This document shows, one piece after another, positions 19,860 through 64,000 of a stretch of DNA of 64,000 bases (its first letter is position 1; every line of letters starts with the position of its first letter). The notes beneath the pieces are model-generated. The model saw only the letters and a list, made by a program, of their open reading frames with translations, did no database searches and was not told where the DNA came from. The position numbers and the translations under genes are program-made. Where the stretch lies: the NCBI GenBank assembly GCA_051715425.1, contig JBPXJS010000041.1, forward strand, positions 336,360 through 400,359, written 5' to 3'. The DNA comes from Bacteroidota bacterium. Its GTDB lineage: Bacteria > Bacteroidota > Bacteroidia > UKL13-3.

Positions 19860-19861
19860 TC

Positions 19862-36524: not shown

Positions 36525-36741
36525 AGTAAAGGAAATAATGGCTGCTGTTTTCGAAACAGAGCCATCATTAATTAATGAAAACAGCAGTCCCGATAATATC
36601 GAGAACTGGGATTCTATCAGACATATGAATCTGATTGTTGCCCTTGAGGAGGAATTCGGAATCCAGTTTAATGATGACCAGATTGCCGACATGACCAACT
36701 TTAAGCTGGTAATTGCTACCCTAAAAGAATTTAGTTTATAG
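36514..36741 (+). CDS. Acyl carrier protein (phosphopantetheine attachment site).
   Basis: 75 aa, acidic. WDSIRHMNLIVALEEEFGIQF has the Ser (DSI) attachment motif and helix II. Confidence 0.75.
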   Translation: MENKVKEIMAAVFETEPSLINENSSPDNIENWDSIRHMNLIVALEEEFGIQFNDDQIADMTNFKLVIATLKEFSL

Positions 36742-49825: not shown

Positions 49826-51636
49826 TGTCAATCATCTTAGGAATTAACTTTAGTCACGACTGTTCCGTATCCCTGCTGAAAAACGGAAAAGTTCTGGCAT
49901 CCATTGAGGAAGAAAAAACTAGTCGTATCAAACAGGATTTCGGCTGGCCCAAAACAGCAGTAGAAAGATTGCTTAAAGAGCATCATATTAAACCAGAAGA
50001 GGTAAACACCATTGCGTTTGGCAGTAAGTTCTTTTTAAGCATCAGCAAGAACGAAGTAAAATACCGTTTTAATAAAACGCAGTTAAACAGAAATGGCGAA
50101 ATATTAAACCGCATTACTTCTTTTCTGGGTTTTACCGATTCAAATTTTACTGATAAAAATACAGACACATTTGAAGAGGAGTTGAAAAAAGAAGGATTTA
50201 TTCATGCGAAAGTTCAATTTTTTAACCATCACCTTGCTCATGCTGCAAGTGCGTGGTATGCCGCTCCATTTGAGTGCGATCTCGTATTTACTGCAGATGG
50301 TCATGGCGATGGGGAATCAATCACATTTTATGAACCTGATTCCGTAGAAGGATTAAAACTGCTGCAATCATTTGGTCACGAAGTTTCTGTAGGTCAATTC
50401 TACAGCGGAATTACCAAACTGCTTGGTTTCAGACCCACAAGGCATGAAGGAAAGATTACAGGATTAGCCGCTTATGGTAAGCCCGGTGAATTACTGGAAA
50501 AGTTCAGGGGAGCATTTCATTTCGAAAATGGAATACTCACCCGGTTTCCTTTTAATGAATCTGAAACATTGTGGAAACAATATAATCTTGATAGTAACCT
50601 TGATCTGAAAACGAAAGTTAACTTTCAGTCTGAATCAGCTGTTGGTCAGCAATACGCTAAAAATGCATGGATACTTGATGCATGGCTGAAAGAAGTAACA
50701 GCAGGATACAGCAAAGAAGATATAGCATATGCCTGTCAGAAAGTAACAGAAGAAGTAATGGTGCAATTGATGGATTATGCCATTCACAAATTTAAAGGTG
50801 GCAAAAAAATCAAACTTGGTCTTGCAGGCGGGGTATTTGCTAATGTAAGGGTCAATCAGCTCCTGTTCGAACACCCTTTGGTAGAAAATGTTTTTGTTCA
50901 ACCCGCAATGGGAGATTCGGGTTTATCTATTGGGGCTGTTTATCTGGCCGATATTGAGGATCATAAAAATAAGCTTACAAACCAATATCGTTTTACTCAT
51001 ACTTATCTTGGACCAGACTATACCAATGATCTGGAAACCTTTTTAAACAACATTGATAAAGATAAATACATTGTAGAAGATATGGGAAATGAAGCACCTA
51101 AAAGGGTTGCCAAATTAATGCAGGATAATACCATAGTAGGCTTTTGGCACGGCAGTATGGAATGGGGCCCCCGTGCCCTTGGAAAACGTTCTATGATCCT
51201 CAATACGTTTGTTAGAAGCGTGAACGACACCCTCAATCAACGATTAAACCGTACTGAATTTATGCCATTTGCTCCTTCAGTTATTGATTATATGGTAAAA
51301 ACATATATGCCTAAATATGAGGAAAAGGATATTGCTGCCGATTACATGACAATAACCTACGATGTTGATCCTAAATATCACGACCAGTTGCAGGCCGTGG
51401 TTCATGTAGACGGAACAGCCCGACCACAAGTGGTAAAAAAAGAAACCAATCCCTATTATTATGCTATAATAGATGAGTTTTATAAACTGACCGGATGCGG
51501 GGCGATTGTAAATACAAGTTTCAATGTTCATGAAGAGCCCATTGTATCATCTCCTGAATCAGCCTTCAGGGCTCTTGTTGATCATCGGATTGATGCGCTT
51601 GTTCTTGACCAATTTCTCATCGTACATAAAAAATGA
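49825..51636 (+). CDS. NodU/CmcH-family carbamoyltransferase (Kae1/HypF-like fold), O-carbamoyltransferase.
   Basis: 603 aa. MSIILGINFSHDCSVSLL N-terminus. NHHLAHAASAWY (H-x-H-x-H metal site). C-terminal GCGAIVNTSFNVHEEPIV is the NodU carbamoyl-AMP domain. Confidence 0.8.
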   Translation: MSIILGINFSHDCSVSLLKNGKVLASIEEEKTSRIKQDFGWPKTAVERLLKEHHIKPEEVNTIAFGSKFFLSISKNEVKYRFNKTQLNRNGEILNRITSFLGFTDSNFTDKNTDTFEEELKKEGFIHAKVQFFNHHLAHAASAWYAAPFECDLVFTADGHGDGESITFYEPDSVEGLKLLQSFGHEVSVGQFYSGITKLLGFRPTRHEGKITGLAAYGKPGELLEKFRGAFHFENGILTRFPFNESETLWKQYNLDSNLDLKTKVNFQSESAVGQQYAKNAWILDAWLKEVTAGYSKEDIAYACQKVTEEVMVQLMDYAIHKFKGGKKIKLGLAGGVFANVRVNQLLFEHPLVENVFVQPAMGDSGLSIGAVYLADIEDHKNKLTNQYRFTHTYLGPDYTNDLETFLNNIDKDKYIVEDMGNEAPKRVAKLMQDNTIVGFWHGSMEWGPRALGKRSMILNTFVRSVNDTLNQRLNRTEFMPFAPSVIDYMVKTYMPKYEEKDIAADYMTITYDVDPKYHDQLQAVVHVDGTARPQVVKKETNPYYYAIIDEFYKLTGCGAIVNTSFNVHEEPIVSSPESAFRALVDHRIDALVLDQFLIVHKK

Positions 51637-52661
51637 CATCTCAGGTACTGTTTATCGGTACTTTCATTTCTTCAACATCAGGAAGTAAAGGCCCCTCGGA
51701 AAGTATTTCAGAAAAGCTGAGTGAAATGGGGCATTTGGTGGGCACTGTTTCCGGAAAAAAAAGCCCGATAGTGCGCTTTCTGGACACCACTTTTCACATT
51801 ATAAACAGGTCATACAGCATAGCCTTTGTTGATGTTTACAGCAGCAGAACTTTGTACCTCACCTATTTTTACACCTTATTGCTTCGATTAAAAGGGATTC
51901 CTTATATTTCCATTCTCCACGGTGGTGCCCTTGAAGAAAAGTATGATACCATACACAACTTCTTAAACCCTTTATTGCTAAGAAGCAAGCATATTATCAC
52001 ACCTTCAGTTTTCCTTCAATCTTTTTTTACAAAAAAGGGCTTTGAAGTGCAACATTTACCAAATCCGCTAAATCAAGATTTGTTTCCTTATAAAGAACGA
52101 TCCGGTATTCCTTCAATGAATGTGAAGCTGCTTTGGGTTAGGGCATTTAGTGAAATTTACCAGCCAGAACTTGCTATTTATACTTTGCTTCATTTGCGAC
52201 AGCGGGGGTACAAGGCAAGCCTCACGATGGTTGGGCCCGATAAAGGCAAATTAAAAGAATGCCAGTTTCTGGCAGAAAAAAACCAGCTTTTACCTTTTAT
52301 TTCTTTTACCGGCCCGGTGGATAATTCCAAACTTTATACATATTACCATACACACGATATCCTACTTAACACAACAAAGTATGAAAGTTTCGGAATGGCT
52401 GTGGCAGAAGCCGCCTCTTGTGGATTACCAGTTGTAAGTAATGCTGTTGGAGAGATTAAAGCTGCATGGAAACATGAGCATGACATTATTCTGGCTAATG
52501 AAAACGATTTCGCTGATAAAGTTTCGTTATTGATTGAAAACAGCAAGCTATATACTAAAATCTCTCAGGAAGCTTACCATCATGCAAAGCTATTCTACCG
52601 GGATAATATAATACCCCAATGGTTGAAGCTTATTCATACCATAAGCAAAAAAACTGCTTAG
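51633..52661 (+). CDS. GT4-family glycosyltransferase.
   Basis: ESFGMAVAEAASCGLPVVSNAVGE (E-x7-E). Confidence 0.7.
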   Translation: MTSQVLFIGTFISSTSGSKGPSESISEKLSEMGHLVGTVSGKKSPIVRFLDTTFHIINRSYSIAFVDVYSSRTLYLTYFYTLLLRLKGIPYISILHGGALEEKYDTIHNFLNPLLLRSKHIITPSVFLQSFFTKKGFEVQHLPNPLNQDLFPYKERSGIPSMNVKLLWVRAFSEIYQPELAIYTLLHLRQRGYKASLTMVGPDKGKLKECQFLAEKNQLLPFISFTGPVDNSKLYTYYHTHDILLNTTKYESFGMAVAEAASCGLPVVSNAVGEIKAAWKHEHDIILANENDFADKVSLLIENSKLYTKISQEAYHHAKLFYRDNIIPQWLKLIHTISKKTA

Positions 52662-52670
52662 CCTTTTATA

Positions 52671-53834
52671 TTGAAGTTAGCCTTTTACTACCACATACCA
52701 GCATCACTTAAACCGGATGGAATATATTTCCCATCCTATTTCGGTGTATTTATTGATGCATTGGCAAATGAATGCAGCGGTTTGGTTCTACTGGTTCATG
52801 AGGCTACTCCCTTTGAAAGTGGATCAAATGACTACAGGCTAAAATCAACTCATATTACCCTGATTAATCTGGGCATAACAACACCAGCCTGGCACCGTGC
52901 TTTGTTTCACAGGAATATCATGAAAAAGGCTAAGCAAACATTAAGCACTTGCGATTCCATGATAGTAAGATGCCCTTGCGCATTGGCTCCGTTTATGCAT
53001 CATTATATGCCTGCGGAAAAAATCTGGTTTATGGCCGTAGGTGATTACCGGGAAGCAGCTAAACACTGGAAAACGCCAACTTTAAGGGATAATGCCATTA
53101 AAGTTTATCTCCTCATTAATGATTACCTGTTTAGAAAAAGGCTGCCATACAGTAACCTGCTTGTTAACTCAAAGCTATTGTTTGACAAGTACAGCAAACT
53201 TGCAAAAAAAATTGACCAGATAAGCACCACAACCCTTTCCTCTTCTGATTTCTATGATAGAACAGATACCTGCACCCGACATGAAACAACATTGTTGTAT
53301 ACCGGCAGAATTGACCGGGCAAAAGGGCTGTTTGAACTGGTAGAGGCTGTTTCTATACTTAGAAATGATGGGATGCCGGTAAGACTGAATATTGCCGGCT
53401 GGGAATTGAAAGAGGGAAATGAAACCGAGAAGGAACTCAGATTATTTGCTTCAACATGCGGTGTAGCTAACCATATCCATTTTCTTGGTAAACTAAGTTC
53501 CGGAACCGAACTTAATCAGGCATACCGTGGGGCAGATATTTATGTTATCCCCTCCTATCACGAAGGATTTCCAAGAACCATCTGGGAAGCGTTTGCCAAT
53601 AGTTTACCCGTTATCACCACTTCTGTTGGAGGTATTCCTGATGTACTCACTCATCTTAAACATGCTTACCTTATTCCCCCGCGTGATACCCGGGCAATAG
53701 TAACTGCAGTTAAATATGTTACCGGCAATCAAGCGTGTCGTAAACTTTTAATAAAAGAAGGAAAATTACTTGCAGCACAAAATACCCTTGAGATTCAAAC
53801 CAACAAACTGGTTCAATGTATTTCAAACCCTTAG
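52671..53834 (+). CDS. GT4-family glycosyltransferase (paralog of 47045-48244).
   Basis: EGFPRTIWEAFANSLPVITTSVGG. Confidence 0.75.
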   Translation: MKLAFYYHIPASLKPDGIYFPSYFGVFIDALANECSGLVLLVHEATPFESGSNDYRLKSTHITLINLGITTPAWHRALFHRNIMKKAKQTLSTCDSMIVRCPCALAPFMHHYMPAEKIWFMAVGDYREAAKHWKTPTLRDNAIKVYLLINDYLFRKRLPYSNLLVNSKLLFDKYSKLAKKIDQISTTTLSSSDFYDRTDTCTRHETTLLYTGRIDRAKGLFELVEAVSILRNDGMPVRLNIAGWELKEGNETEKELRLFASTCGVANHIHFLGKLSSGTELNQAYRGADIYVIPSYHEGFPRTIWEAFANSLPVITTSVGGIPDVLTHLKHAYLIPPRDTRAIVTAVKYVTGNQACRKLLIKEGKLLAAQNTLEIQTNKLVQCISNP

Positions 53835-53903
53835 TACAATTTAAAGGAACATCTCTCTAAATCATCACAATATCCGTAAGAAATCATTTGGATTTCTATA
53901 TTT

Positions 53904-55022
53904 ATGAACACCATTTCAATGTCGCACAAAAACAAAATAAACTTTAATACCGATAAAAAAATATTATACCTGCTTCCTACCCCATCAATGAAAGGAGGAA
54001 TGACAGCAATAACACAAATGTGGTACGATGTAGGACTATTTGAATCCGGCAAAACAAAACATTTTGATACCAACTTTTTCTGGGGACGTAACGTTTTTGT
54101 GAGGTTAATGGAATCGTTTGTCCTGAAAATAAAATTCATATATGTACTTCTGCAATTTAAGCCTTACGCCATCTATGTAATCGCATCACCTTATTGGGGA
54201 TTTTACGATAAAATTTGCTATTGTGCCATTGCCAGGGTTTTCTCCGTTAAATCTATTTTTAATAACGTAAGTGCGCGTTTTATTACGTTTCACGAATCCA
54301 CTTTTTTTAACAGAGCGCTTTCAAAATGGTGTATAAAAATTCCAGATGCCCTTGTGGTTGGTTCGCCTTATTGGTACAATTACTTTAATAAACATTTCCC
54401 AAATGCAAAGGTGGTTGAAATTCCCAATCCGGTAACCTCAAATGAATTCATTAGTCGTCCCAAAACAGCGGAAAAATCAAATGGCAAAATCAAAGTAGTT
54501 ACAGCATCCCGGATTACCAAAGAAAAGGGGATATTTGAATTGATACAGGTGGTAAAAATGGTATGTGCTAAAAGTGACCGGTTTGAATTCACCATTATGG
54601 GTGAAGGCCCTGAACTGGATAATATGAGAAAAGAATTGGCCGAGTATGTCTCTTCCGGTTATGTAAAGATTAAAGGCTTTATTATAGGAGAAGAAAAAAT
54701 TAAAACAATCACAGATGCCGATATTTATCTGCTGCTTACACATTTTGACCTGATGCCCATCTCCATACTTGAAGCAATGTCTGCAGGCCTTCCTGTCTTT
54801 ACAACTAAAGTTGGCGGGGTTGATGATATGATTCAAGAAAATGAAACAGGGCATCTTTTTTCTGTAAAAGAAATTAACGAAGTGGCAGATAAACTCCTGT
54901 CTTACCAGTGCAAAAGAGAAAAGCTAATTGAAATGGGGCTGAAAGGACGAAAAAAAGTTCTTGAAAAATATGATATTGAAGTAATCGCTAACCAGCATAT
55001 TCATCTTGTAAATAGCATTTAA
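53904..55022 (+). CDS. GT4-family glycosyltransferase.
   Basis: LMPISILEAMSAGLPVFTTKVGG. Confidence 0.75.
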   Translation: MNTISMSHKNKINFNTDKKILYLLPTPSMKGGMTAITQMWYDVGLFESGKTKHFDTNFFWGRNVFVRLMESFVLKIKFIYVLLQFKPYAIYVIASPYWGFYDKICYCAIARVFSVKSIFNNVSARFITFHESTFFNRALSKWCIKIPDALVVGSPYWYNYFNKHFPNAKVVEIPNPVTSNEFISRPKTAEKSNGKIKVVTASRITKEKGIFELIQVVKMVCAKSDRFEFTIMGEGPELDNMRKELAEYVSSGYVKIKGFIIGEEKIKTITDADIYLLLTHFDLMPISILEAMSAGLPVFTTKVGGVDDMIQENETGHLFSVKEINEVADKLLSYQCKREKLIEMGLKGRKKVLEKYDIEVIANQHIHLVNSI

Positions 55023-55024
55023 CA

Positions 55025-56425
55025 ATGGCCTTAACAGATATTATATATAAATACCTTCCTGTTAGTCTTCAGAATTATGCCATTTCCCTGTATGGCTACA
55101 AGTGGCAGAAAAGACGTTTTGGAGGTATATTCGAAAAGGAACTGACAGGCTTTAAAACGCGGGAAAAATACACCCCTGAGCAATGGGAAGCGTATCAGAA
55201 TACAGAACTCAGAAAAATATTGACCCACGCTTTTTCCCATGTACCATTTTACAGGAAAAAATTCACCGATTCGGGCTTTACCCTGCATGACCTTGTAAAC
55301 TTTACCTTATCAGACTTAAGTCATTTGCCCTATCTGGAGAAAGATGAGTTAAGAACATTTGGAACCACAGATCTGATTGCATCAACAAAGGAACCCGGAG
55401 GAGACTTTTTTGCCAGCAGCGGAAGTACCGGAACGCCCACACAAATTCTTATTTCTCCACGGATGCATCAGGCATGGAGCGCGGGATTTGAAGCACGCAT
55501 CAGGCACTGGGCAGGAGTAAACAGGAAAACCCCTCGCGGAACTATTGGTGGCAGAAGAATTATAAAAGACGGAGACGCAAAAGGGCCATTCTACAGATAT
55601 AATCTGGTTGAAAAGCAGGTCTATTTTTCAGCATACCATATTTCCCCAAAAACAGTAGCCAACTATGTAGACGGTATGTTTAAACATCGGATCGAATACA
55701 TGACAGGTTATGCCATGAGCAACTATTTTCTTGCACGTTTTATTGAAGAGGCAGGAATCAAAGCTCCACAACTCAAGGCCGTTATTACCTCGAGTGAAAA
55801 ATTAACTCCCGAAATGAGGGAAACTTTCCGAAGGGTGTATGGCTGCCCTACCTTTGACTCCTATAGCGGTGTTGAAGACTGCGGCATGATAACCGAATGT
55901 GAATCCGGAAGTTTGCATATAAGTCCGGATCTGGGAATAATAGAAATTCTAAATGAACAGGGAAAACCTGTAAATCCTGGTGAAGAAGGTGAAGCAGTTT
56001 GCACAGGTACACTTAATTATGACCAACCTTTAATACGCTACAGAATAGGTGATATGCTTCGGCTAAGCAAGAATCAGAATTGCCCATGTGGCAGGCAAAT
56101 GCCGGTAATTGATGAAATAATAGGTAGAATTGAAGATACCGTGGTGGGTAAGGATGGGCGCGAGATGGTGCGGTTTCATGGCATATTTATCAACATTCCT
56201 GAGATTATTGAAGCTCAGTTGATTCAACATACATTAGAGATGTTTGAAATAAAATTGGTAACATCGCAGCAGCTTAACCCGGATCAATTAAGCCTTATCC
56301 AAAGCCGCATGGAAAGCCAGCTGGGTAAGATTAACCTTGAAATTAATGAAGTAGAGAGCATACCCAGAAACCAAAACGGAAAATTTAAAGCCGTTATCTC
56401 TAAAGTAAAAAGAAATACCATATGA
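55025..56425 (+). CDS. Phenylacetate-CoA ligase / CapK-family adenylate-forming enzyme.
   Basis: FASSGSTGTPTQ (adenylation P-loop-like core) and YLEKDELR. 466 aa. Confidence 0.7.
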   Translation: MALTDIIYKYLPVSLQNYAISLYGYKWQKRRFGGIFEKELTGFKTREKYTPEQWEAYQNTELRKILTHAFSHVPFYRKKFTDSGFTLHDLVNFTLSDLSHLPYLEKDELRTFGTTDLIASTKEPGGDFFASSGSTGTPTQILISPRMHQAWSAGFEARIRHWAGVNRKTPRGTIGGRRIIKDGDAKGPFYRYNLVEKQVYFSAYHISPKTVANYVDGMFKHRIEYMTGYAMSNYFLARFIEEAGIKAPQLKAVITSSEKLTPEMRETFRRVYGCPTFDSYSGVEDCGMITECESGSLHISPDLGIIEILNEQGKPVNPGEEGEAVCTGTLNYDQPLIRYRIGDMLRLSKNQNCPCGRQMPVIDEIIGRIEDTVVGKDGREMVRFHGIFINIPEIIEAQLIQHTLEMFEIKLVTSQQLNPDQLSLIQSRMESQLGKINLEINEVESIPRNQNGKFKAVISKVKRNTI

Positions 56426-57630
56426 ATACACTCAAACTAATAAAGAATCACACAGGAAAACTTGTTCCCCTTGCGCTTAGCACATTAAATCCGGCTAATT
56501 TTACGGTGCTTGTAAAAAATGCCTTTAGTCTATTATCAAGCCAGCAATGGGAAAACTACATTCTCAAAAACAACAAAAAACACACAGAACTGGCAAAGAA
56601 GTCACTCAACTGGCTAAAACATTCTCAGGATGTTATTGGATCAGGAGGCGTGGGCTGTTATGAATTTTACAGGTGGACCAAAGGTTATCCTGAAGTAACC
56701 GGATACATTATACCAACCTTTTGGGATGCATACCATTTATTTGGTGACGAAGAATATAAACAAAGAGCCATTAGAATGGCTGATTGGGAATTGGGTTTAC
56801 AAAAACCGGAAGGCGGATGGGAAGGCTTTTATGAAGGTGACGGCCAACCTCCCGTAGTTTTTAATTCCGGTCAGGTGCTGAGGGGACTTATCAGAACATA
56901 CAAAGAAACCAACGAACAAAAATACCTTGATGCGGCCATTAAAGGAGCTGATTGGATAGTTGGAACTCAGGATGCAGACGGTAGCTGGACCAGCACCAAC
57001 TTTAAACAAATGAAACGGGTGTACGATACTTACGTTACTGCACCCATTGCAGAATTGTATCAGATTACCAAAAACGAAAAGTATAAAGAAAGCTGCATCA
57101 GAAACTGCGATTTTGTATTGAAACACCAACATGCCAATGGCTGGTTTGAGCTTTGTGATAATACGTTGCTGAACAATGAAGCTCCTGTTACCCATACCTT
57201 ATCGTATACCACAGATGGATTAATTGAAACCGGACAACGGCTAGGAATTGATAAATATATTCAGGCCGGTAAACTTGCAGCAGAAGCTATGATGCATAAA
57301 GCTGAAATTTTACCGGTAATGCCAGCACGACTTGATAAGGACTGGAAAAAAAGAGCCAATTATGTTTGTAATACAGGTAACGCACAATTAGGTATTATCC
57401 TCATGAGACTGTATGAAATAACAGGAGAAGCCCGCTACATGAACACTGCTCTAAAACTGGCCGATTTCCTTGCCTATATCCAGCAACTGAATAGTGTGGG
57501 AGCACACCGCACCGGAGGAATAACAGGATCTTATCCGATATGGGGAATGTATTGCCCGCTGAAATACCCATCGTGGGCAAGTAAATATTATACCGATCTT
57601 TTATTCTATATCCATAAGCATGCTAAATAA
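56422..57630 (+). CDS. Alpha/alpha-toroid repeat protein with terpenoid-cyclase / prenyltransferase-like QW repeats. Function unknown.
   Basis: Repeats LQKPEGGWEG, TQDADGSWTS and HQHANGWFEL spaced about 45-55 aa apart. Confidence 0.4.
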   Translation: MNTLKLIKNHTGKLVPLALSTLNPANFTVLVKNAFSLLSSQQWENYILKNNKKHTELAKKSLNWLKHSQDVIGSGGVGCYEFYRWTKGYPEVTGYIIPTFWDAYHLFGDEEYKQRAIRMADWELGLQKPEGGWEGFYEGDGQPPVVFNSGQVLRGLIRTYKETNEQKYLDAAIKGADWIVGTQDADGSWTSTNFKQMKRVYDTYVTAPIAELYQITKNEKYKESCIRNCDFVLKHQHANGWFELCDNTLLNNEAPVTHTLSYTTDGLIETGQRLGIDKYIQAGKLAAEAMMHKAEILPVMPARLDKDWKKRANYVCNTGNAQLGIILMRLYEITGEARYMNTALKLADFLAYIQQLNSVGAHRTGGITGSYPIWGMYCPLKYPSWASKYYTDLLFYIHKHAK

Positions 57631-58372
57631 AGACACGCTTTCAGAGCAAATCGCATTTATCTCCATTAATCCTTCGGGTAAATTTGTAAAATCGGCTCAG
57701 CTGGGATTTGACAAGGTTGGTTTGCGGCCTAAGTTTATGATTTATGTAAACCCCGGAGGGAGGATAAAAAAAGAATTTAAAAAATATCGCCTTGGCATAT
57801 TCACTCAGTTTTTACTTCCAAAATTCAAACAACACTTTGGCAATAAACAAAGCTTTTCCAACGAGGTCATAAACATTCCCATTCCGGTTATCCATAAAGT
57901 AAGTTCATTAAACAGTGACGAAACAGTAAAGTTTATTACCGACAACAAGATTAAATACCTGGTGAATTGTGGTGCCGGAATTTTCAGAAAAAAAATCACT
58001 TCCATTCAAGGCATTCAAATCATTAATGCCCATGCCGGGAAACTTCCTCACTACAGAAATATGAATGTGGTGGAATGGGCACTGCTGAATGGAGAACCTG
58101 TTATCGGAACCATTCATCTGATTGATAGCGGAATTGATACCGGACCAATTCTTTATGAAGAAGAATTAAAGATTAGTGGTGCTGATCACCTGATACCTGC
58201 AAGGGAAATGGCTTTTGATCAGGTCATACAACTGGCAGGTAAAACCGTGCTTGCACTTGCCGAAGAAACATTAAACATCAAACCACAGCCTAAAGAGGGT
58301 AAAAAATGGTATACCATGCATCCCTTCTTTAAGGAAAAACTGAACAGAAAACTGGCCTCTGCGGGCAGGTAA
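57620..58372 (+). CDS. Formyltransferase-domain protein (short form).
   Basis: INAHAGKLPHYRNMNVVEWALLNG and IHLIDSGIDTGPILYEE. Confidence 0.65.
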   Translation: MLNKDTLSEQIAFISINPSGKFVKSAQLGFDKVGLRPKFMIYVNPGGRIKKEFKKYRLGIFTQFLLPKFKQHFGNKQSFSNEVINIPIPVIHKVSSLNSDETVKFITDNKIKYLVNCGAGIFRKKITSIQGIQIINAHAGKLPHYRNMNVVEWALLNGEPVIGTIHLIDSGIDTGPILYEEELKISGADHLIPAREMAFDQVIQLAGKTVLALAEETLNIKPQPKEGKKWYTMHPFFKEKLNRKLASAGR

Positions 58373-58396
58373 AATTATTCTGTCCAACTCTTTTTC

Positions 58397-59617
58397 ATGA
58401 AAATTCTTATCCTCACCCAATACTTTCCTCCTGAAACAGGTGCACCACAAAACCGGTTGCATTCACTTGCCAGTTATTTAAGTGAATTTGGCGCAGAGGT
58501 GAGCATCCTTACGGCCATGCCCAACTATCCCAAAATGGAAATATATGAGGGGTATACAGGTAAATTCTTTAAAAAGGAAACCGATGGACCGCTTACCGTT
58601 TACAGAAGCTGGATATATGTAAAAAAGAGCAAGGGGGTTTTGGCCCGGCTTCTTAATTATTTTTCTTTTGTATTCTCTTCTCTTTTTATTGGACTTTTCA
58701 GGGTACCACGACATGATCTGATCATATGTGAATCCCCTCCCCTTTTTCTGGGAATCACAGCCCTACTTCTTAAATGGATAAAAAGCAGTAAACTTGATTT
58801 TAATGTATCCGACTTATGGCCTGAAAGTGCCGAAAAGCTGGGTATCGTAAACAATAAGATCATGCTTGGACTTTCATATAAACTGGAATCCTTTATTTAT
58901 AAAAATGCCAACCTGGTGAGCGGACAAACCCAAGGTATCATTACCAGCATCAATCAACGATTCCCAAAAGTAAATACCCACCTCTTCCGAAACGGAATTG
59001 ATACCAAACAATTCTCTACAGAAGGAAACAGATCAGGGTTCAGAAACAAATATGGGATGTTGGAATCCGATTTTGTTATTGCATACGCAGGCATAATAGG
59101 ACATGCTCAGGGGTTGGAGGTAATTATACATGCAGCAAAAGAACTGAGTGCATATCCTCAGATAAAATTTTTGATTGTAGGTGACGGCCCTGAGAAACCG
59201 AAACTAATTGAGCTTACGGCACAACTGGGTCTTACCCATATTATTTTCGTTAACAATGTTCCAAGAAGTGAAATGCCTGATGTGGTAGCAGCATGCGATT
59301 GTTATGTAACTCCCCTCAGGAAAAATGATTTGTTCCTGGGAGCAATCCCTTCCAAAATTTTTGAACCACTTAGTTTTGGTAAGCCTGTGCTTTTGGGTGT
59401 GGATGGGGAAGCAAAGGAGTTATTTGTTGACACCGGACATTGTGCCCTACACTTTGAGCCGGAAAATGCATCACATCTGGCACAGCAGGCGTTAAAACTG
59501 TTTAATAACAAAACGCTCTTGCATGAGTTAGGGGCAAACGGAAGGCTTTATGTAAGAAATAATTTCGACAGACAGGTACTCGCAAAATCTTTATGGCAGA
59601 AACTACAAACTATATAA
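58397..59617 (+). CDS. GT4-family glycosyltransferase, WbuB-like.
   Basis: MKILILTQYFPPETGAPQNR is the WbuB-type N-terminus. Confidence 0.8.
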   Translation: MKILILTQYFPPETGAPQNRLHSLASYLSEFGAEVSILTAMPNYPKMEIYEGYTGKFFKKETDGPLTVYRSWIYVKKSKGVLARLLNYFSFVFSSLFIGLFRVPRHDLIICESPPLFLGITALLLKWIKSSKLDFNVSDLWPESAEKLGIVNNKIMLGLSYKLESFIYKNANLVSGQTQGIITSINQRFPKVNTHLFRNGIDTKQFSTEGNRSGFRNKYGMLESDFVIAYAGIIGHAQGLEVIIHAAKELSAYPQIKFLIVGDGPEKPKLIELTAQLGLTHIIFVNNVPRSEMPDVVAACDCYVTPLRKNDLFLGAIPSKIFEPLSFGKPVLLGVDGEAKELFVDTGHCALHFEPENASHLAQQALKLFNNKTLLHELGANGRLYVRNNFDRQVLAKSLWQKLQTI

Positions 59618-60264
59618 TAAAAGATGCAAAGGCGGATGATTTGAAAACAATTGCCCGTTGCCACAAAGCCGCTTTCCCCGATTCTTTAACAAGTCTGTTG
59701 GGTATTGGATTTATTGCCGACATGCTAAAATGGTACCTGAGCGGTTCAAATAAGTTTTTATACTGGATAGAAGAGAACGGAAAGTGTATTGGCTACTGCG
59801 GAGGATATCTGATGGATGGGCGCGATGCATACGGGGCAAGTTCAGGCATGACCCAATTTGGTTTTAACAGCGCGCTTCGCGCCATGATTTTCAGGCCATG
59901 GTTGTTTTTTCACCCGGAAATATTAGCCAAATACAAATTTATCTGGACCAATATAAAACGAAGGCTGATCAAACAACCAGCAACGGTTAAACAGGAGAAT
60001 ACAAAAAGCACCTCATCAAAATCCGGCAATCAATTACAGGCAGGGCTGGTAGTAATTGGGGTTTCTCCTGAACTTCATAAAAAAGGTTTAGGAACCTTGC
60101 TGCAACAGGAGTTTGAAAGACGTGCCTTAAACATGGGAGCAACTGTTTTATCCCTTTCTGTAAGAAAAGTGAACAACAAAGCCATCTCCTCCTACCAGCG
60201 AAATGGCTGGAATATCACTGACGAAAACGGCCCGTCTCATATTATGACCAAACGCATCAATTAG
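59593..60264 (+). CDS. GNAT-family N-acetyltransferase.
   Basis: VVIGVSPELHKKGLGTLLQQEFERRA (acetyl-CoA pocket Q/R-x-x-G-x-G/A). Confidence 0.55.
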   Translation: MAETTNYIIKDAKADDLKTIARCHKAAFPDSLTSLLGIGFIADMLKWYLSGSNKFLYWIEENGKCIGYCGGYLMDGRDAYGASSGMTQFGFNSALRAMIFRPWLFFHPEILAKYKFIWTNIKRRLIKQPATVKQENTKSTSSKSGNQLQAGLVVIGVSPELHKKGLGTLLQQEFERRALNMGATVLSLSVRKVNNKAISSYQRNGWNITDENGPSHIMTKRIN

Positions 60265-60289
60265 TGCAAAGTGTTTAGTGCAAAGTGCT
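60262..60289. repeat. Tandem 14-bp direct repeat (TAGTGCAAAGTGTT / TAGTGCAAAGTGCT) overlapping the stop codon of the upstream gene.
   Basis: Read directly from the sequence. Confidence 0.6.
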
Positions 60290-60353
60290 CGGTTAGCATG
60301 TAAATAATAAGCTTGAGTTTGTTCGTTCAAAGTTGGCCATTTAACGCATTCGC

Positions 60354-60409
60354 ACATTAACACTTCGACACCTCAACACCTCAACACATTAACACCTCAA
60401 CGCATCTAC
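60354..60409. repeat. Seven tandem 8-bp units ACMTYRAC (ACATTAAC ACTTCGAC ACCTCAAC ACCTCAAC ACATTAAC ACCTCAAC GCATCTAC) in a 184-bp intergenic region.
   Basis: Read directly. The 8-bp period is less than one helical turn. It is not CRISPR-like: no spacers, and the units are too short. Confidence 0.6.
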
Positions 60410-60448
60410 CAACTGGCCGGTGTTTTCAACTAACCAGGAATAAAAATA

Positions 60449-61201
60449 TTGATCTACTTCACCCACGATATAGACTGGCTTTCTCCTTCTCATCCGTATT
60501 CCATTATCAAGTCTTTAACTCATGCAGATAAATGGATAGGATTAGGGCAAATATCAGATAAAAATCTTTTTCTTAGGGAGATTGAAGCGTTGCTTTCAAC
60601 TGATATCACACTCCAGATAAATCCGGTATGGTTAATAGGTGCGCCAAAATCAGGAAGTTTTACACGTTACGGGTTACGTTACCATATTGGTGATACAAAT
60701 TACATGAAATGCTTATCCCTTCTTTTGGAGGCAGGTGTAGAAACGGGGCTTCATAGTATCAACTCGGAATCTTTTACTGAACAGGTAACCACATTGAGTT
60801 CCCTGCTGCAAAAACCAGTAAAATATCACAGAAGTCACTTTCTGAAATTTAGCACAAAAGAACTTACAGAGAATCTCATTAAGCACCACGTGAAGGTTGA
60901 TTTCAGTTTTGGTCACGCCAGAAATATTGCACTTCCGGGGTTACCTGTTTCTTCGGATCATGGTATTCGCTTTATTCCCACCGTCCTCTTCGACAATATA
61001 TTTTTCTTTGAACAACCTGCTGTTATTTTTAATATGCTCAGAAAGGTTCTTGCAGAATCAGCAAAACTAAAGCAGGATATTTCCATTCTCTTCCATCCGG
61101 AAAATTTCGTTTTAAAGCCCGCCCTGCACCAACATTATGCTGAAGTGATTCGCATTTGTAAAAATGAAGGTGATATCTTTAACCCTAAAGTTGAGGCATA
61201 A
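60449..61201 (+). CDS. Hypothetical protein (possible deacetylase or TIM-barrel-like fold).
   Basis: 250 aa. No confident motif. Coding potential is supported by length and codon usage consistent with its neighbours. Confidence 0.3.
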   Translation: MIYFTHDIDWLSPSHPYSIIKSLTHADKWIGLGQISDKNLFLREIEALLSTDITLQINPVWLIGAPKSGSFTRYGLRYHIGDTNYMKCLSLLLEAGVETGLHSINSESFTEQVTTLSSLLQKPVKYHRSHFLKFSTKELTENLIKHHVKVDFSFGHARNIALPGLPVSSDHGIRFIPTVLFDNIFFFEQPAVIFNMLRKVLAESAKLKQDISILFHPENFVLKPALHQHYAEVIRICKNEGDIFNPKVEA

Positions 61202-61387
61202 CCGGATTTCACCGCACCCCTAACTTTTATTTGCAGCCTTTCCCATTAGCTAAGGGCATCTCTTTTGGCTTTCTTTTAATGACTGTTGTTCTGCAGTCGC
61301 ATCCCCACCATCTTATTTATTTAGCGATTTTCATCTGAAAATCCTTATTTCGCAGGTATTGTTTATACTTAATACTTAAAGATACCT

Positions 61388-62599
61388 ATGCTGCCATTTT
61401 CTCCTCCGCACATCGACCAAAAAATTATTGATGAAGTAATCGATACCCTAAAATCCGGTTGGATTACTACAGGCCCAAAAACAAAAAAGTTCGAAAAAGA
61501 GCTTACTGCATATGCAGGAAACAAAGCCACCCTTTGCTTAAATTCAGCCACAGCCGGGTTAGAAATTATGCTGCGCTGGTTTGGTGTTCAGGAGGGGGAT
61601 GAGGTGATTTTGCCGGCATATACATACAGTGCAACAGCTAATGTGATTGTGCATTGCGGAGCCAAGCCTGTTTTTGTCGATATCGGAGATGACTTTAATA
61701 TTTCTGTGAATCAGATAGCCCAGGCAGTTACAGAGCGTACAAAAGTAATCATGCCGGTTGATTTCGGTGGTTATCCTTGTGATTACAATGGTATCAACGC
61801 ATTGGTAAATAAGCCTGAGATAAAAAGCCTGTTTAAACCAGCAACAAAAGAACAGGAACAATTGGGGAGAATAATGGTACTTTCAGATGCTGCGCATTCC
61901 ATAGGAGGATTTTACAACAGTAAACGTACCGGTTCATTAACAGATGTATCTGTTTTTTCTTTTCATGCCGTAAAAAACCTTACCACTGCAGAAGGCGGAG
62001 CCATTGCCCTCAATCTGCCACCTCCATTTGATAATGAAGAAATATACAAATACCTGTGTATAAAAACGCTTCATGGCCAGAACAAAGATGCCCTGGCCAA
62101 AAGTATACCTGGTAACTGGCGCTACGATATTATTGAAGCCGGTTATAAGATGAATATGACAGATATTATGGCCTCTATAGGCCTGGTTGAACTGGAGCGG
62201 TACGACAGGGAAATCCTTCCGGAAAGGAAGCAGATTTTTGAACAGTATACAGAAACATTTAAGCAATATAGCTGGGCTATCATTCCTGAGTATGCCAATG
62301 ATGTAGCCATATCATCCTACCACCTGTACCCGCTAAGAATTAAAGGGGCAACTGAGAAACAAAGGGATGCAGTTATTGCTAAGATATTTGAAAAGCAGGT
62401 TTCGGTTAATGTTCATTTTATACCCGTTCCTATGATGAGTTTTTATGTGAACAGGGGTTATGATATAACCAACTACCCTAAAACCTATAATATGTATTGT
62501 AATGAGATTTCTTTACCTGTTTATGTTGGATTAACACCTGATAAGGTAAAACAGGTAACTGATGCTGTAATTCAATCCATTCAGGAAGTAATGGGATAA
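61388..62599 (+). CDS. DegT/DnrJ/EryC1-family PLP aminotransferase, PglE/WbpE-like (UDP-4-keto-sugar aminotransferase).
   Basis: FSPPHIDQKIIDEV and FSFHAVKNLTTAEGGAI (PLP Lys). Confidence 0.8.
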   Translation: MLPFSPPHIDQKIIDEVIDTLKSGWITTGPKTKKFEKELTAYAGNKATLCLNSATAGLEIMLRWFGVQEGDEVILPAYTYSATANVIVHCGAKPVFVDIGDDFNISVNQIAQAVTERTKVIMPVDFGGYPCDYNGINALVNKPEIKSLFKPATKEQEQLGRIMVLSDAAHSIGGFYNSKRTGSLTDVSVFSFHAVKNLTTAEGGAIALNLPPPFDNEEIYKYLCIKTLHGQNKDALAKSIPGNWRYDIIEAGYKMNMTDIMASIGLVELERYDREILPERKQIFEQYTETFKQYSWAIIPEYANDVAISSYHLYPLRIKGATEKQRDAVIAKIFEKQVSVNVHFIPVPMMSFYVNRGYDITNYPKTYNMYCNEISLPVYVGLTPDKVKQVTDAVIQSIQEVMG

Positions 62600-62644
62600 G
62601 GATGTTTTGAAAGATGATGGCAGGATTGTAAACTTGCAATCACT

Positions 62645-63232
62645 TTGAAACGCCTTTTTGATATTCTATTCAGCCTCATTGGCATACTACTCCTTTCACC
62701 GGTTTTTCTGTTGTTATGGCTGCTTATTAGAATGGAATCCAAAGGGCCTGCCGTTTTTACCCAAATGCGCGTTGGACTTAACAACAGCAACTTTACCCTT
62801 TATAAGTTCCGCAGCATGTATTCAGATGCCGAAAAAAGGGGACAACTTACGGTAGGCATGCGTGACCCAAGGATTACCAAAGTTGGTTATTACCTGAGAC
62901 GGTTTAAACTCGATGAATTACCCCAATTATTTAATGTACTTAATGGCAGTATGAGTTTTGTAGGGCCCAGGCCCGAAGTAAGGCGCTATGTGGATTATTA
63001 CACGCATGAACAATTAAAAGTGCTTTCCGTAAGGCCGGGAATTACAGATTTTGCATCCCTGAAATATTATAAGGAAAATGAATTACTGGGTAAAGCCAGC
63101 GACCCTGAAAAGGAGTACATTCAGGTAATTATGCCTGAAAAACTGGCTCTTAACCTGGAGTATATTAAGAAAAACTCTTTACTGAAAGATATCGTAATTA
63201 TAGTACAAACCATTATCAAAATAATAACCTGA
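62645..63232 (+). CDS. Small (PglC/WecA-unrelated monotopic) phosphoglycosyl transferase of the bacterial sugar transferase family. It initiates the repeat unit on undecaprenyl phosphate.
   Basis: MKRLFDILFSLIGILLLSP, YKFRSM and DELPQLFNVLNGSMSFVGPRP are PglC-family motifs. 195 aa. Confidence 0.85.
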   Translation: MKRLFDILFSLIGILLLSPVFLLLWLLIRMESKGPAVFTQMRVGLNNSNFTLYKFRSMYSDAEKRGQLTVGMRDPRITKVGYYLRRFKLDELPQLFNVLNGSMSFVGPRPEVRRYVDYYTHEQLKVLSVRPGITDFASLKYYKENELLGKASDPEKEYIQVIMPEKLALNLEYIKKNSLLKDIVIIVQTIIKIIT

Positions 63233-63292
63233 TAATAAATAGTTTGGATTTGTATATAATAGTTTCTTTATATTCGTAAAGTTAAAGATAAA

Positions 63293-64000
63293 ATGAGCTT
63301 ACTCTACTCCTTATTCCCCAAAACCGGCAATGCACCGCGGTGGCTGATCTTCTCAATTGACATATTTATTTGTGTTTTCTCTTTTATTTCAGCAACACTC
63401 CTTCGGTTTAATTTCTTTATTGAGGATGCTTTTAACCCGGAATATTTCTATACTTTACCCCTTGTTCTGGCTATCAGAATCCTGTTTATCCTTTATTTCC
63501 GGATTTATGCAGGCATTATTCGCCATACCAGCGTGCAGGATGCCATCCGGGTGTTTTATACCATTACTTTCAGCACCATTGTTATCAGTATCATCAATAT
63601 TATTTACACCAAAATTAACCTGGATACCAAGGCACTTATTCCTGTATCTATTATTATTATTGATTATATAGGTACCACCTTGCTAATGAATTCTTTCAGG
63701 GTTGCGGCCAAGGTGATGTATATGCAGATTAACCGGCCCGATGAATCCAATATTACCAATTTTGCTGTTTTTGGTGCCGGAGAGGCCGGTATTATTGCCA
63801 AAAGAAAACTGGAACAAAATGGCAGCCGGGATATTAAGGTGGTAGCCTTTTTTGATGATGACCAGAAGAAATACAAAAATTATGTTGATGGTGTAACCAT
63901 TTACCATGGCGGAAGAGACCTGGAAACCGTCATTAAAAAACTCAATATAAAAGAAGTGGTTATTTCGCCTCAGGATATTTCTAAATCAAGAAAGCAGGAA
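63293..64000 (+). CDS. N-terminal part of a PglF/CapD/WbpM-like membrane-anchored UDP-GlcNAc 4,6-dehydratase (open to the window end, and absent from the ORF track because there is no in-window stop).
   Basis: ATG at 63293. 236 codons with no stop. Four N-terminal TM helices, then FAVFGAGEAGIIAKRK Rossmann and VAFFDDD. Confidence 0.7.
   Translation, partial: MSLLYSLFPKTGNAPRWLIFSIDIFICVFSFISATLLRFNFFIEDAFNPEYFYTLPLVLAIRILFILYFRIYAGIIRHTSVQDAIRVFYTITFSTIVISIINIIYTKINLDTKALIPVSIIIIDYIGTTLLMNSFRVAAKVMYMQINRPDESNITNFAVFGAGEAGIIAKRKLEQNGSRDIKVVAFFDDDQKKYKNYVDGVTIYHGGRDLETVIKKLNIKEVVISPQDISKSRKQE

Follow-up and report, generated by a model that had tools for sequence, protein, structure and literature searches.

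A window of 64,000 nucleotides from a Bacteroidota bacterium (contig JBPXJS010000041.1, positions 336,360 to 400,359 of the forward strand) was analyzed, with emphasis on three adjoining genes that encode a CapK/PaaK-type adenylate-forming enzyme, an alpha/alpha toroid protein and a formyltransferase (hereafter CapK, the toroid and FT). The toroid was found to belong to a large uncharacterised six-hairpin family located in biosynthetic, not degradative, glycan loci. It is strictly coupled to a private formyltransferase subfamily, it is distantly related and positionally equivalent to the just-proposed VpsJ epimerase class, and it is present inside Vim-type clusters of Bacteroidota; these four points are new. 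The epimerase-like toroid, its coupled FT and the adjoining CapK amide ligase may tailor a repeat-unit sugar, a reading, with chemistry that we infer, which we regard as possible but short of probable.

The three open reading frames (ORFs) proposed by an earlier sequence-only reading of this DNA were recovered at the same positions, on the plus strand (Table 1). The translational coupling that it had claimed for CapK and the toroid was also borne out, given that the CapK stop codon overlaps the toroid start codon in an ATGA; between the toroid and FT genes the overlap is 11 nt. No transmembrane segment or signal peptide was detected in CapK, the toroid or FT (19-residue Kyte-Doolittle maximum 0.98-1.14), and the three proteins were therefore taken as cytoplasmic.

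Three Q-x-x-x-G-(G/S)-W loops were found in the toroid (Q127-W133, Q183-W189 and Q236-W241), as the earlier reading had reported. By eye, the stretch KGADWIVGTQDADGSW (residues 173-189) is an exact squalene-cyclase QW consensus, [K/R][G/A]xx[FYW][LIV]xxxQxxxGxW, and the other two copies (118-133 and 227-241) are partial; the repeats exceed chance. Five Pfam matches were obtained, to Pec_lyase (1.4e-14), GH88 (3e-10), C5-epim_C (6e-10), GH127 (4e-9) and SQHop_cyclase_C (5.6e-7), each above its gathering score and each partial, all within residues ~109-242, because of the Q-x-x-x-G-x-W hairpin loops. Judging from the fact that Pec_lyase, GH88, GH127 and C5-epim_C match the same region, the QW motif is not exclusive to cyclases. 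The GH88 match (39.9 bits) covers only profile positions 29-117 of 352. The C-terminal domain of the C5-epimerase Glce (PF06662), an alpha/alpha barrel like the toroid, whose C5 chemistry takes place on uronates within a polymer, gave 39.3 bits, above the gathering score, but the match spans only profile positions 30-88 of 188 and precomputed matches are flagged 'faint'; with 59/188 profile positions covered, a domain-length match was rejected. Of the profiles that the sequence-only reading had named as a check, SQHop_cyclase_C matched and Prenyltrans and LANC_like did not. LanC-like membership was rejected: besides the missing LANC_like match, NF038150 matched weakly (E-value 0.0065) and no CHG/WCxG pattern was seen in the toroid.

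The predicted alpha-alpha toroid was confirmed by an AlphaFold2 model built from a 35-sequence alignment, in which 12 helices form an (alpha/alpha)6 barrel and the N-terminal helices are folded, with a predicted local distance difference test (pLDDT) score of 94.7 and a predicted TM-score of 0.93. When the model was compared with the PDB by Foldseek, the best matches were cellobiose, glucose and N-acetylglucosamine (GlcNAc) 2-epimerases, YihS, GH88 and GH76 enzymes (TM-scores 0.56-0.67); MmpH was also among the matches, and no terpene cyclase occurred in the 50 best. Members of the AGE superfamily (4z4j, 7d5g, 6f04 and 2zbl, TM-scores 0.59-0.67), whose substrates are free reducing sugars, were the best matches and share with the toroid a barrel of 12 helices and a His at the start of helix 8. 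Unlike the AGE enzymes, the toroid (H258-T-L-S-Y) is without the second conserved His and an H-x-x-E is not evident; Pfam gave no GlcNAc_2-epim match for the toroid. The toroid fold is ordinary among carbohydrate enzymes, and both profiles and folds favor sugar-acting enzymes over terpene cyclases. The earlier label 'terpenoid-cyclase-like' accordingly holds for the generic six-hairpin fold and not beyond it, as no DxDD or DDxxD motif is present and sugar-acting enzymes match best.

Invariant residues of the toroid family (E91/Y95, N148/Q151/R154, Y201/D202, H258/Y262, C316/Q322 and W385/K388/D392) are located where helices 90-107, 146-163, 201-216, 257-274, 317-334 and 384-401 begin, and these positions make up one face of the barrel in the model. 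The N-termini of the inner helices are the usual catalytic face of the six-hairpin fold. Given this clustering on one face, the toroid is predicted to be an enzyme rather than a scaffold, and the suggestion that it is a scaffold or binding partner is unlikely, since each of the six inner helices carries invariant residues at its N-terminus. The toroid is most simply read as a putative sugar epimerase or isomerase-type tailoring enzyme.

The toroid family is large, with 3,478 representatives at 50% clustering in an exhaustive search (892 at E<=1e-30) and 445 matches in a word-index search. A sample of 80 genome loci from Bacteroidota, Proteobacteria, Actinobacteria, Acidobacteria and Firmicutes was examined together with two haloarchaeal megaplasmid loci. 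All of these toroid loci, from at least five phyla and haloarchaea, are glycan-biosynthesis loci, and the earlier view that such a fold is not expected in capsule loci did not survive. Neighboring genes were clustered and counted in the 71 loci with a called toroid gene. Within four genes on either side of the toroid, an N-acyltransferase of any kind was found in 47/71 loci, WecB in 29, DUF7033 in 27, a DltA-like adenylating enzyme in 17 and a CapK-type one in 6, with no adenylating enzyme in 48 of the 71. Directly adjacent to the toroid, an FT or AAC(3)-like gene was present in 27/71 loci and an adenylating enzyme of any kind in 21/71. WecB was located within 10 kb of the toroid in 39 of 86 loci scanned (including two duplicate loci), and WecC-type genes in 5; isoprenoid genes were found in none of ~90 loci. 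The commonest neighbors in Bacteroidota are VimE-like, FemAB/VimA-like and AAC(3)-like genes, small GNATs, DltA-like genes and WecB.

The toroid is fused to an S-adenosylmethionine (SAM)-methyltransferase in Lachnospiraceae loci, to a GT2 and a methyltransferase in L076 (898 aa), to two methyltransferase domains in L083 (760 aa; Acidobacteria, Pyrinomonadaceae), to GT4 domains in P0358 (with a 51% identical toroid), P0439, P0461 and P0479, to LicD and GT4 in P0494, and to an AAC(3)-type N-acetyltransferase in P0441. The GT4, AAC(3), methyltransferase and GT2 fusions place the toroid within cytoplasmic glycan assembly, beside glycosyl transfer or N-acylation. The Firmicutes form (L073-L084) has a small Rossmann-like N-domain, the toroid and a SAM-methyltransferase in ~605 aa, and these fusions are surrounded by GT2 genes and WecB. 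Two very long proteins, P0425 and P0496 (1,457 and 1,294 aa), contain the toroid and start with DUF2341 domains, P0425 having in addition a 3-keto-disaccharide-hydrolase-like domain; they may be extracellular relatives with another role. Two Solirubrobacterales loci (L004 and L013) carry, 5' of the toroid, a phosphopantetheinyl transferase, an adenylation-thiolation didomain (AMP-binding plus PP-binding), a cytochrome P450 and a hydrolase-like protein of 632 aa, and, 3' of it, an AAC(3)-like gene and a GT4 as well as a true C5-epim_C protein. This context suggests a carrier-protein-bound, hydroxylated amino acid that is attached to the glycan.

The short formyltransferase paralog that had been noted downstream was confirmed. 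FT is a diverged paralogue of the product of 49028-49825 (27% identity, E-value 2e-15), it scores 40 bits with Formyl_trans_N against a gathering score of 26.1, and its catalytic residues N136, H138 and D173 (N-x-H...D) are invariant in 28 homologues. The AlphaFold2 model of FT had a pLDDT of 91.6, with lower confidence at residues 50-90, and the best Foldseek matches were 6v33, 6v2t, ArnA-FT, WbkC, VioF, WbtJ and Fmt. The nucleoside diphosphate (NDP)-sugar N-formyltransferases (WbkC, VioF, WbtJ, the ArnA N-domain and 6v33/6v2t) share the fold, the size and the N-H-D triad with FT, whereas the identity is ~15% and the N-terminal substrate-binding half of FT is divergent. Among PDB sequences, sugar N-formyltransferases and the LgrA F-domain matched FT equally weakly (E-value ~1e-7). 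FT would be an N-formyltransferase dependent on N10-formyl-tetrahydrofolate, with a sugar amine or an aminoacyl amine as acceptor.

The FT subfamily is small (116 matches) and follows the toroid closely. On contigs of at least 10 kb, 25/35 toroid homologues (>=53% identity) had an FT homologue on the same contig and 25/41 FT matches had a toroid match, both figures being lower bounds. When FT homologues lacking a toroid match were inspected, a toroid gene was located directly 5' in 3/3, frameshift-broken in two. A plasmid search with FT returned generic formyltransferases only, with no toroid-linked copy in cultured plasmids. FT, and not CapK, is the dedicated partner of the toroid; we know of no sugar formyltransferase with an obligate toroid partner.

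The assignment of the first gene to the PaaK/CapK adenylating enzymes was correct. CapK carries SSGSTGTPT (an A3-like SSGxTG loop), a C-terminal GK (A10-like) and CPCGR, its closest solved relatives are PaaK ligases (PDB 4r1l, E-value 9e-26), and its precomputed Pfam family is PF27533 (CapK_C); the motifs and PaaK fold matches place it in the CapK/PaaK adenylate-forming class (COG1541, PF27533). Identification as a phenylacetate-CoA ligase equivalog was rejected at 84.9 bits for TIGR02155 (cut-off 646) and 108.8 for NF041878 (cut-off 700), and the gene is located in a glycan locus, not in a paa operon. By analogy, CapK is a putative ATP-dependent amide ligase whose substrate would be a glycan carboxylate or amine. 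The CapK family is very large (>3,000 matches), and a GT4+CapK_C fusion protein is known (P0176, 801 aa).

Four close CapK homologues on long contigs (L087-L090, 62-66% identity) were all found in a cassette without toroid and without FT. The order there is GT4, CapK, optionally WecB, WcaI-like GT4, GNAT (3/4), optionally WecB, and DegT plus Bac_transf (3/4); the GT4 5' of CapK is thus present in L087-L090 too. Orthologues of the window WcaI-like GT4 (51-54% identical) lie directly 3' of CapK in L087, L089 and L090, which also carry orthologues of the window GNAT (38-42% identity); L088 has a 26%-identical GT4 after CapK with WecB in between. Since the four cassettes lack toroid and FT, these two genes are best described as a two-gene module inserted between CapK and the downstream GT4. 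Among the 78 top CapK matches on long contigs, only 7-8 had a toroid or FT match on the same contig. The pairing of CapK with the toroid that the sequence-only reading had put forward does recur elsewhere (L003, L005, L007, L009, L092 and L093), so that neither of the two outcomes that it had named as counting against it (repeats without profile support, a pair never seen again) was encountered; the pair is not obligate, however, being absent from the four homologous cassettes. Distinct CapK subtypes stand directly 5' of a conserved toroid+FT, being 61-65% (L005, L007), 31-35% (L092, L093) and 23% (L006) identical to the window CapK. With at least three subtypes ahead of the module, the neighborhood is therefore not random.

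A previous study of a Vibrio polysaccharide has shown that the glycine amide on N-acetyl-L-gulosaminuronic acid (L-GulNAcA) depends genetically on VpsH, which is PaaK/CapK-like, and that VpsJ is required after transfer of N-acetyl-D-mannosaminuronic acid (D-ManNAcA) and before Gly/Ac decoration and chain extension (PMC13463779). Deletion of vpsJ blocks extension and deletion of vpsH does not; VpsJ, an unannotated protein whose fold was likened to 2-epimerases and to aspartate-semialdehyde dehydrogenase, was proposed in 2026 as a new C5-epimerase class converting D-ManNAcA to L-GulNAcA on a lipid-linked disaccharide (PMC13463779). Two vps-type clusters from PLSDB, L095 on a chromid of Pseudoalteromonas and L094 on a Vibrio replicon, were used for comparison; the VpsJ comparison is that of their VpsJ-position genes, for which orthology rests on cluster synteny and on the remark in that paper about a dehydrogenase annotation. 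The order in L095 is wecB, wecC, acetyltransferase, VpsD-family, VpsE-like, VpsF-family, AAC(3)-like, CE4-like hypothetical, CapK-like, GT4, a 402-aa "aspartate-semialdehyde dehydrogenase", Acyl_transf_3, VpsK-like and VpsL-like.

The window CapK and the VpsH-position protein of L095 align over their full length (29% identity, E-value 9e-62) and both carry SSG(S/T)TG, GK and CPCGR motifs; unlike VpsH, the clade of the window CapK usually neighbors two GT4s and a GNAT. Similarities of the window GT4s were generic and uninformative, and a VpsI orthologue among them was rejected. Pairwise BLAST of the toroid against a VpsJ-like protein gave weak, out-of-register hairpin matches only. A toroid profile against a single VpsJ-like sequence reached a probability of 91%, and hhalign of 59 toroids against 8 VpsJ-like sequences reached 98.3% (E-value 2e-14, 236-318 columns, ~19% identity, nearly in register). 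Toroid H258 is aligned with the VpsJ-family invariant H254 in helix 8, and the QxxxGxW loop, a basic residue of helix 4 and Q322 are also common. The toroid of the window and VpsJ are both soluble ~400-aa proteins, encoded in a Wzx/Wzy locus together with a CapK-like ligase and GT4s. On the other hand, the toroid-invariant GYPEVTGY and most other toroid motifs are missing from VpsJ-like proteins, the VpsJ-invariant D307/H309 are missing from the toroid, and the vps clusters are without an FT partner and with wecC, while the window is without a sugar dehydrogenase. On this profile evidence the VpsJ-like proteins are six-hairpin toroid proteins, and the two groups appear to be distant homologues, separate families of one superfamily.

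Members of the VpsJ-like family are common on replicons of haloarchaea, Methanosarcina and Burkholderia, with wecB, genes for sugar dehydrogenases and a deacetylase, and large FemAB-like GNATs as neighbors. The NCBI annotation pipeline (PGAP) calls the VpsJ-like genes L095:12392-13600, L097:6914-8230 and L100:8293-9519 'aspartate-semialdehyde dehydrogenase', 'antibiotic ABC transporter permease' or 'hypothetical protein', and such misnaming is probably behind the dehydrogenase remark in the 2026 paper (PMC13463779). PGAP names the haloarchaeal toroid homologues 'prenyltransferase/squalene oxidase repeat-containing protein'; this and the other automatic names of the toroid family ('prenyltransferase/squalene oxidase repeat protein', 'GH88', 'YyaL', 'YesR') are misleading. 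Haloarchaeal megaplasmids carry both families. The toroid of L085 (Haladaptatus plasmid) and L086 (Halobellus plasmid) is accompanied by wecB, a sugar dehydrogenase and a sulfatase-family gene, and an 'alginate lyase family' gene lies beside it in L085 only. Gulosaminuronic acid and glycine have been reported in haloarchaeal cell-wall polymers, and these haloarchaeal contexts fit this. Literature searches on CapK biochemistry, uronic-acid amide ligases, six-hairpin proteins in biosynthetic clusters and a gulosaminuronic acid epimerase, and on 'squalene oxidase repeat' with polysaccharide, returned nothing beyond PMC13463779 and PMC7468200.

The second of these papers describes the Wbp/Vim pathway, in which the proposed role of VimE is de-N-acetylation, VimA determines the amino acid (Ser/Gly) on a diamino-uronic "linking sugar" and WbpS is the amidotransferase (PMC7468200). 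VimE-like, VimA/FemAB-like and WecB (WbpI-like) genes are also present in the Bacteroidota neighborhood of the toroid. The DUF7033 proteins that flank the toroid there matched, over their full length, the NCBIfam VimE model (NF053580, 6e-40), and the Haloferax volcanii deacetylase beside a VpsJ-like gene matched the same model (4e-10) as well as the DUF7033 genes of 16 toroid loci. WecB, a VimE-like deacetylase, the toroid or a VpsJ-like protein, and N-acyltransferases follow one another in this order both in Bacteroidota, with the toroid, and on H. volcanii pHV4, with the VpsJ-like protein. Given the common gene order and deacetylase, the two proteins therefore appear to fill the same slot in analogous pathways. 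On pHV4 (L097), the VpsJ-like gene is accompanied by a complete Wbp pathway, the VimE-like deacetylase and two FemAB-like GNATs.

A conserved Vim-type cluster was observed in many Bacteroidota (L018-L072) beside the housekeeping genes radC, dnaX, proS and uvrA, with examples at L029:5463-13341, in L036, in Thermaurantimonas aggregans (L053) and in Schleiferia thermophila (L065). Its genes are, in order, WecB, VimE-like (DUF7033), toroid, optional DltA-like adenylation domain and GNAT, AAC(3)-like, another VimE-like and VimA/FemAB-like. The Wbp/Vim pathway of Porphyromonas gingivalis and Tannerella forsythia as described lists no toroid and no AAC(3)-like enzyme (PMC7468200). The L018-L072 lineages may make a further modified linking sugar for the T9SS (type IX secretion system). 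The window resembles the Wbp/Vim pathway in having a VimE-like fragment (orf250) and an AsnB-like amidotransferase; no VimA-like gene was found in the window block. By hmmsearch with hidden Markov models of the DUF7033 clusters, orf250 gave E-values from 1e-8 to 9e-7 (23.7 bits), and the NCBIfam VimE match was weak (0.0031); THDID, GLHS and RSHF motifs were recognized by eye. From these matches, orf250 is a possible source of the free amine for FT.

Given the kinship of the toroid to VpsJ and not to terpene cyclases, a sugar-tailoring module is the most likely function. The steps and substrates proposed here are all inferred from the observed gene structure, folds, homologies, partner statistics and fusions. 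The three genes would represent two units placed side by side in one repeat-unit tailoring block (53904-63232), not one machine. Unit 1 would be the widespread cassette of GT4, CapK, WcaI-like GT4, GNAT, optional WecB, DegT and phosphoglycosyltransferase, in which CapK, by analogy with VpsH, would adenylate a carboxylate and form an amide on the growing lipid-linked glycan. Unit 2 would be the mobile toroid+FT module, placed between CapK and the GT4 that normally comes next downstream. We propose that the toroid inverts one stereocenter in a hexosamin(uron)ic residue; following the VpsJ proposal, C5 of a 2-amino uronic acid is the likeliest position. Either a nucleotide sugar or an undecaprenyl-diphosphate-linked intermediate could be its substrate. 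Candidate catalytic residues are His258 and Tyr262 as the base and Arg154 as the carboxylate partner, in a pocket at the six inner-helix N-termini. The translationally coupled FT would then N-formylate that residue at an amine, which a de-N-acetylase, for instance the VimE-like orf250, could set free. Formylation, the CapK amide and the next glycosyl transfer, as irreversible steps, could pull the reversible epimerization forward.

Several points weigh against this scheme. Pfam scans of the 64-kb window revealed no UDP-sugar dehydrogenase, neither non-hydrolysing WecB nor WecC was found there, and a UDP-ManNAc dehydrogenase was located within 10 kb of the toroid in just 5 of ~80 loci; a uronic-acid substrate is therefore not established. 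The epimerase role of VpsJ itself comes from genetics, mass spectrometry that is blind to C5 epimers and a structural guess (PMC13463779). Identity between the toroid and VpsJ-like proteins is ~19%, with several invariant motifs confined to one family, and Foldseek TM-scores (~0.65) were no better for epimerases than for GH88/GH76 hydrolases. In the actinobacterial locus L004, a bona fide C5-epim_C protein is separate from the toroid. Among close toroid+FT relatives, a VimE-like gene was found only in the window and in the related contig L001, and no VimA-like genes were found in the other close toroid+FT loci.

In a bolder form of the proposal, which we find doubtful, the toroid and VpsJ-like families would be an unrecognised superfamily of cytoplasmic six-hairpin epimerases making L-hexosaminuronic acids, with toroid-FT as an 'epimerise then N-formylate' device. 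The products, in bacteria and archaea, would be L-GulNAcA, L-GulNAc3NAcA and L-AltNAcA, formed at a point that follows or immediately precedes glycosyl transfer, and toroid-FT would yield N-formyl-L-hexosaminuronic residues.

Somewhat unlikely, in our view, is that the toroid and FT act on nucleotide sugars in a Wbp/Vim-type re-decoration, in which deacetylation is followed by toroid isomerization (not necessarily at C5), re-acylation by FT and aminoacylation by CapK. Other lineages would re-acylate via AAC(3)-like, GNAT or FemAB-like enzymes, and CapK (a DltA-like enzyme elsewhere) would put an amino acid on a sugar amine, and not on a carboxylate, with mycothiol/bacillithiol-style logic. The Bacteroidota neighbors of the toroid (VimE-like, FemAB/VimA-like, AAC(3)-like, GNAT, DltA-like and WecB) agree with such a route, the Vim logic of which is documented (PMC7468200). 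The DegT aminotransferase and the VimE-like orf250 lie close by in the window, an AAC(3)+toroid fusion (P0441) is known, and the nearest structures of FT are NDP-sugar N-formyltransferases, with the LgrA F-domain, which formylates an aminoacyl amine, scoring equally. Against these stand VpsJ, a distant relative and the one member with genetic data, which acts on a lipid-linked disaccharide, and VpsH, which adds glycine to the uronate carboxylate (PMC13463779). Moreover, there is no known six-hairpin mechanism for C2 epimerization of a glycosidically locked sugar, and the GT4/GT2 fusions suit a lipid-linked stage at least equally.

It is improbable that the toroid is a six-hairpin hydrolase or lyase (GH88/GH105, GH76 or PL-like) that trims, recycles or proof-reads glycan intermediates, cytoplasmic or lipid-linked, with FT acting independently. 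MmpH acts in this manner on the mycobacterial methylmannose polysaccharide, and it appears with GH88 and GH76 among the fold matches of the toroid; the Pec_lyase, GH88 and GH127 Pfam matches exceed their gathering scores, and the toroid adjoins an 'alginate lyase family protein' in one haloarchaeal locus. However, the Pfam coverage is that of the repeat region alone (~35-120 residues of 290-376-position profiles), the toroid is cytoplasmic and within biosynthetic operons, and FT coupling in the great majority of close relatives, together with the GT4/AAC(3)/methyltransferase fusions, is unusual for a degradative enzyme.

Quite improbable is a toroid that serves as a binding or scaffold partner, or as a novel acyl/amide transferase, working obligatorily with CapK. 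The ATGA coupling, the three CapK subtypes (61-65%, 31-35% and 23% identical) directly 5' of toroid+FT, the vps cluster with its similar pair of CapK-like and toroid-like genes, and the adjacent adenylating enzyme in 21/71 toroid loci are what such a partnership would produce. The reverse is seen from the CapK side, where the toroid is missing from 4/4 close homologue loci and the toroid or FT shares a contig with just 7-8/78 top matches, and from the toroid side, where 48/71 loci have no adenylating enzyme within ±4 genes. The conserved polar pocket of the model also points to an enzyme rather than a scaffold, and, since deletion of vpsJ blocks extension while that of vpsH does not, the part played by a toroid-like protein goes beyond helping the ligase.

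A true prenyltransferase or terpenoid cyclase acting on a polyprenyl lipid, for example to modify the undecaprenyl carrier, is very improbable and largely refuted: squalene-hopene cyclase and prenyltransferase toroids do share QW-like motifs (one exact and two partial here) and alpha/alpha hairpins with the toroid, SQHop_cyclase_C scores 29.3 bits, just above its gathering score, squalene-hopene cyclase is the best HMMER match among PDB sequences (2.9e-6), and PGAP uses a prenyltransferase name for haloarchaeal homologues, but inspection of the 402 aa showed no DxDD, DDxxD or prenyltransferase Zn-ligand pattern, the single barrel contrasts with a two-domain cyclase of ~630 aa, TIGR01787 (23.1 bits, cut-off 322.7) and TIGR01507 (14.6, cut-off 431) fall far short, Prenyltrans (PF00432) gave no match at E<=0.1, and neither a cyclase in the 50 best folds nor isoprenoid genes in ~90 loci were found.

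The 64-kb window is a single plus-strand glycan super-locus with Wzx, Wzy, numerous GT4/GT2, a carbamoyltransferase, deacetylases and DegT aminotransferases; the genes of the tailoring block are listed in Table 1. Three NeuB-type nonulosonic-acid synthases (1916-2938, 14954-15934 and 23325-24383), NeuC-like and PseF-like genes and a HisH/HisF-like pair (19242-20647) were also found. Five formyltransferase-like genes are present (4817, 21662, 25594, 49028 and 57620), an unusual density of such paralogues. Other genes encode an MBOAT, an M28-like DUF4910 protein, a MaoC-SDR fusion and an AsnB-like amidotransferase, and the acyl carrier protein that the sequence-only reading had placed at 36514 does exist as an ACP-like ORF (36514-36741). 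At the thresholds used, Pfam gave no match for the ORFs 33355-35109 (584 aa), 18036-19238 (400 aa), 20655-21668 (337 aa) and 29438-30565 (375 aa).

Contig L001 was found to be 93.8% identical at the nucleotide level to positions 52663-63999 of the window, and the toroid gene is the best-conserved stretch (96-100%, against 77-92% in the flanks). Where the window has 49825-52663, L001 (1-6244) carries an additional AsnB-like amidotransferase and a 439-aa CapK-like paralogue; these extra genes sit between the carbamoyltransferase and GT4 genes and are both missing from the window. As they have no counterpart there, this difference represents a strain-level indel of an 'amidation cassette'.

Table 1. 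Genes of the proposed repeat-unit tailoring block, with window coordinates.
Feature	Coordinates	Strand	Basis and remarks
GT4 glycosyltransferase	53904..55022	+	Pfam Glycos_transf_1 1.7e-27; immediately 5' of CapK; CapK-cassette member
CapK/PaaK-family adenylate-forming enzyme, VpsH-like, 466 aa	55025..56425	+	Motifs, PaaK structures, PF27533
Toroid, (alpha/alpha)6 six-hairpin, 402 aa	56422..57630	+	Pfam partial matches, AlphaFold2, hhalign
Formyltransferase (FT), 250 aa	57620..58372	+	Pfam Formyl_trans_N 4.6e-10
WcaI-family GT4 glycosyltransferase	58397..59617	+	NCBIfam PRK10307 WcaI family 2.5e-56
GNAT N-acyltransferase, CapK-cassette member	59593..60264	+	Pfam Acetyltransf_1 1.7e-11
orf250, 250 aa, weak relative of the C-terminal part of VimE-like (DUF7033, CE4-type) de-N-acetylase	60449..61201	+	hmmsearch
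DegT-family sugar aminotransferase, end of conserved cassette	61388..62599	+	Pfam DegT_DnrJ_EryC1 4.6e-92
Small PglC-type phosphoglycosyltransferase, initiating enzyme	62645..63232	+	Pfam Bac_transf 1.6e-60

The present results correct misleading automatic names of the toroid and VpsJ-like families, and the toroid-FT coupling and the GT4/AAC(3)/methyltransferase fusions provide directly testable enzyme pairs. For many pathways that make O-antigens, capsules, T9SS linking sugars and haloarchaeal glycans, we know of no enzyme assigned to the L-hexosaminuronic step. Should the toroid prove to be a tailoring enzyme of the epimerase type, the VpsJ proposal, based on one 2026 genetics paper, would apply to thousands of glycan loci from Bacteroidota, Proteobacteria, Actinobacteria, Firmicutes, Acidobacteria and haloarchaea. 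The family would then supply candidate genes for the rare L-hexosaminuronic acids of O-antigens and capsules and, in Bacteroidota, an unrecognised extra enzyme in the Vim-type clusters that build the anchor sugar of type IX secretion cargo.

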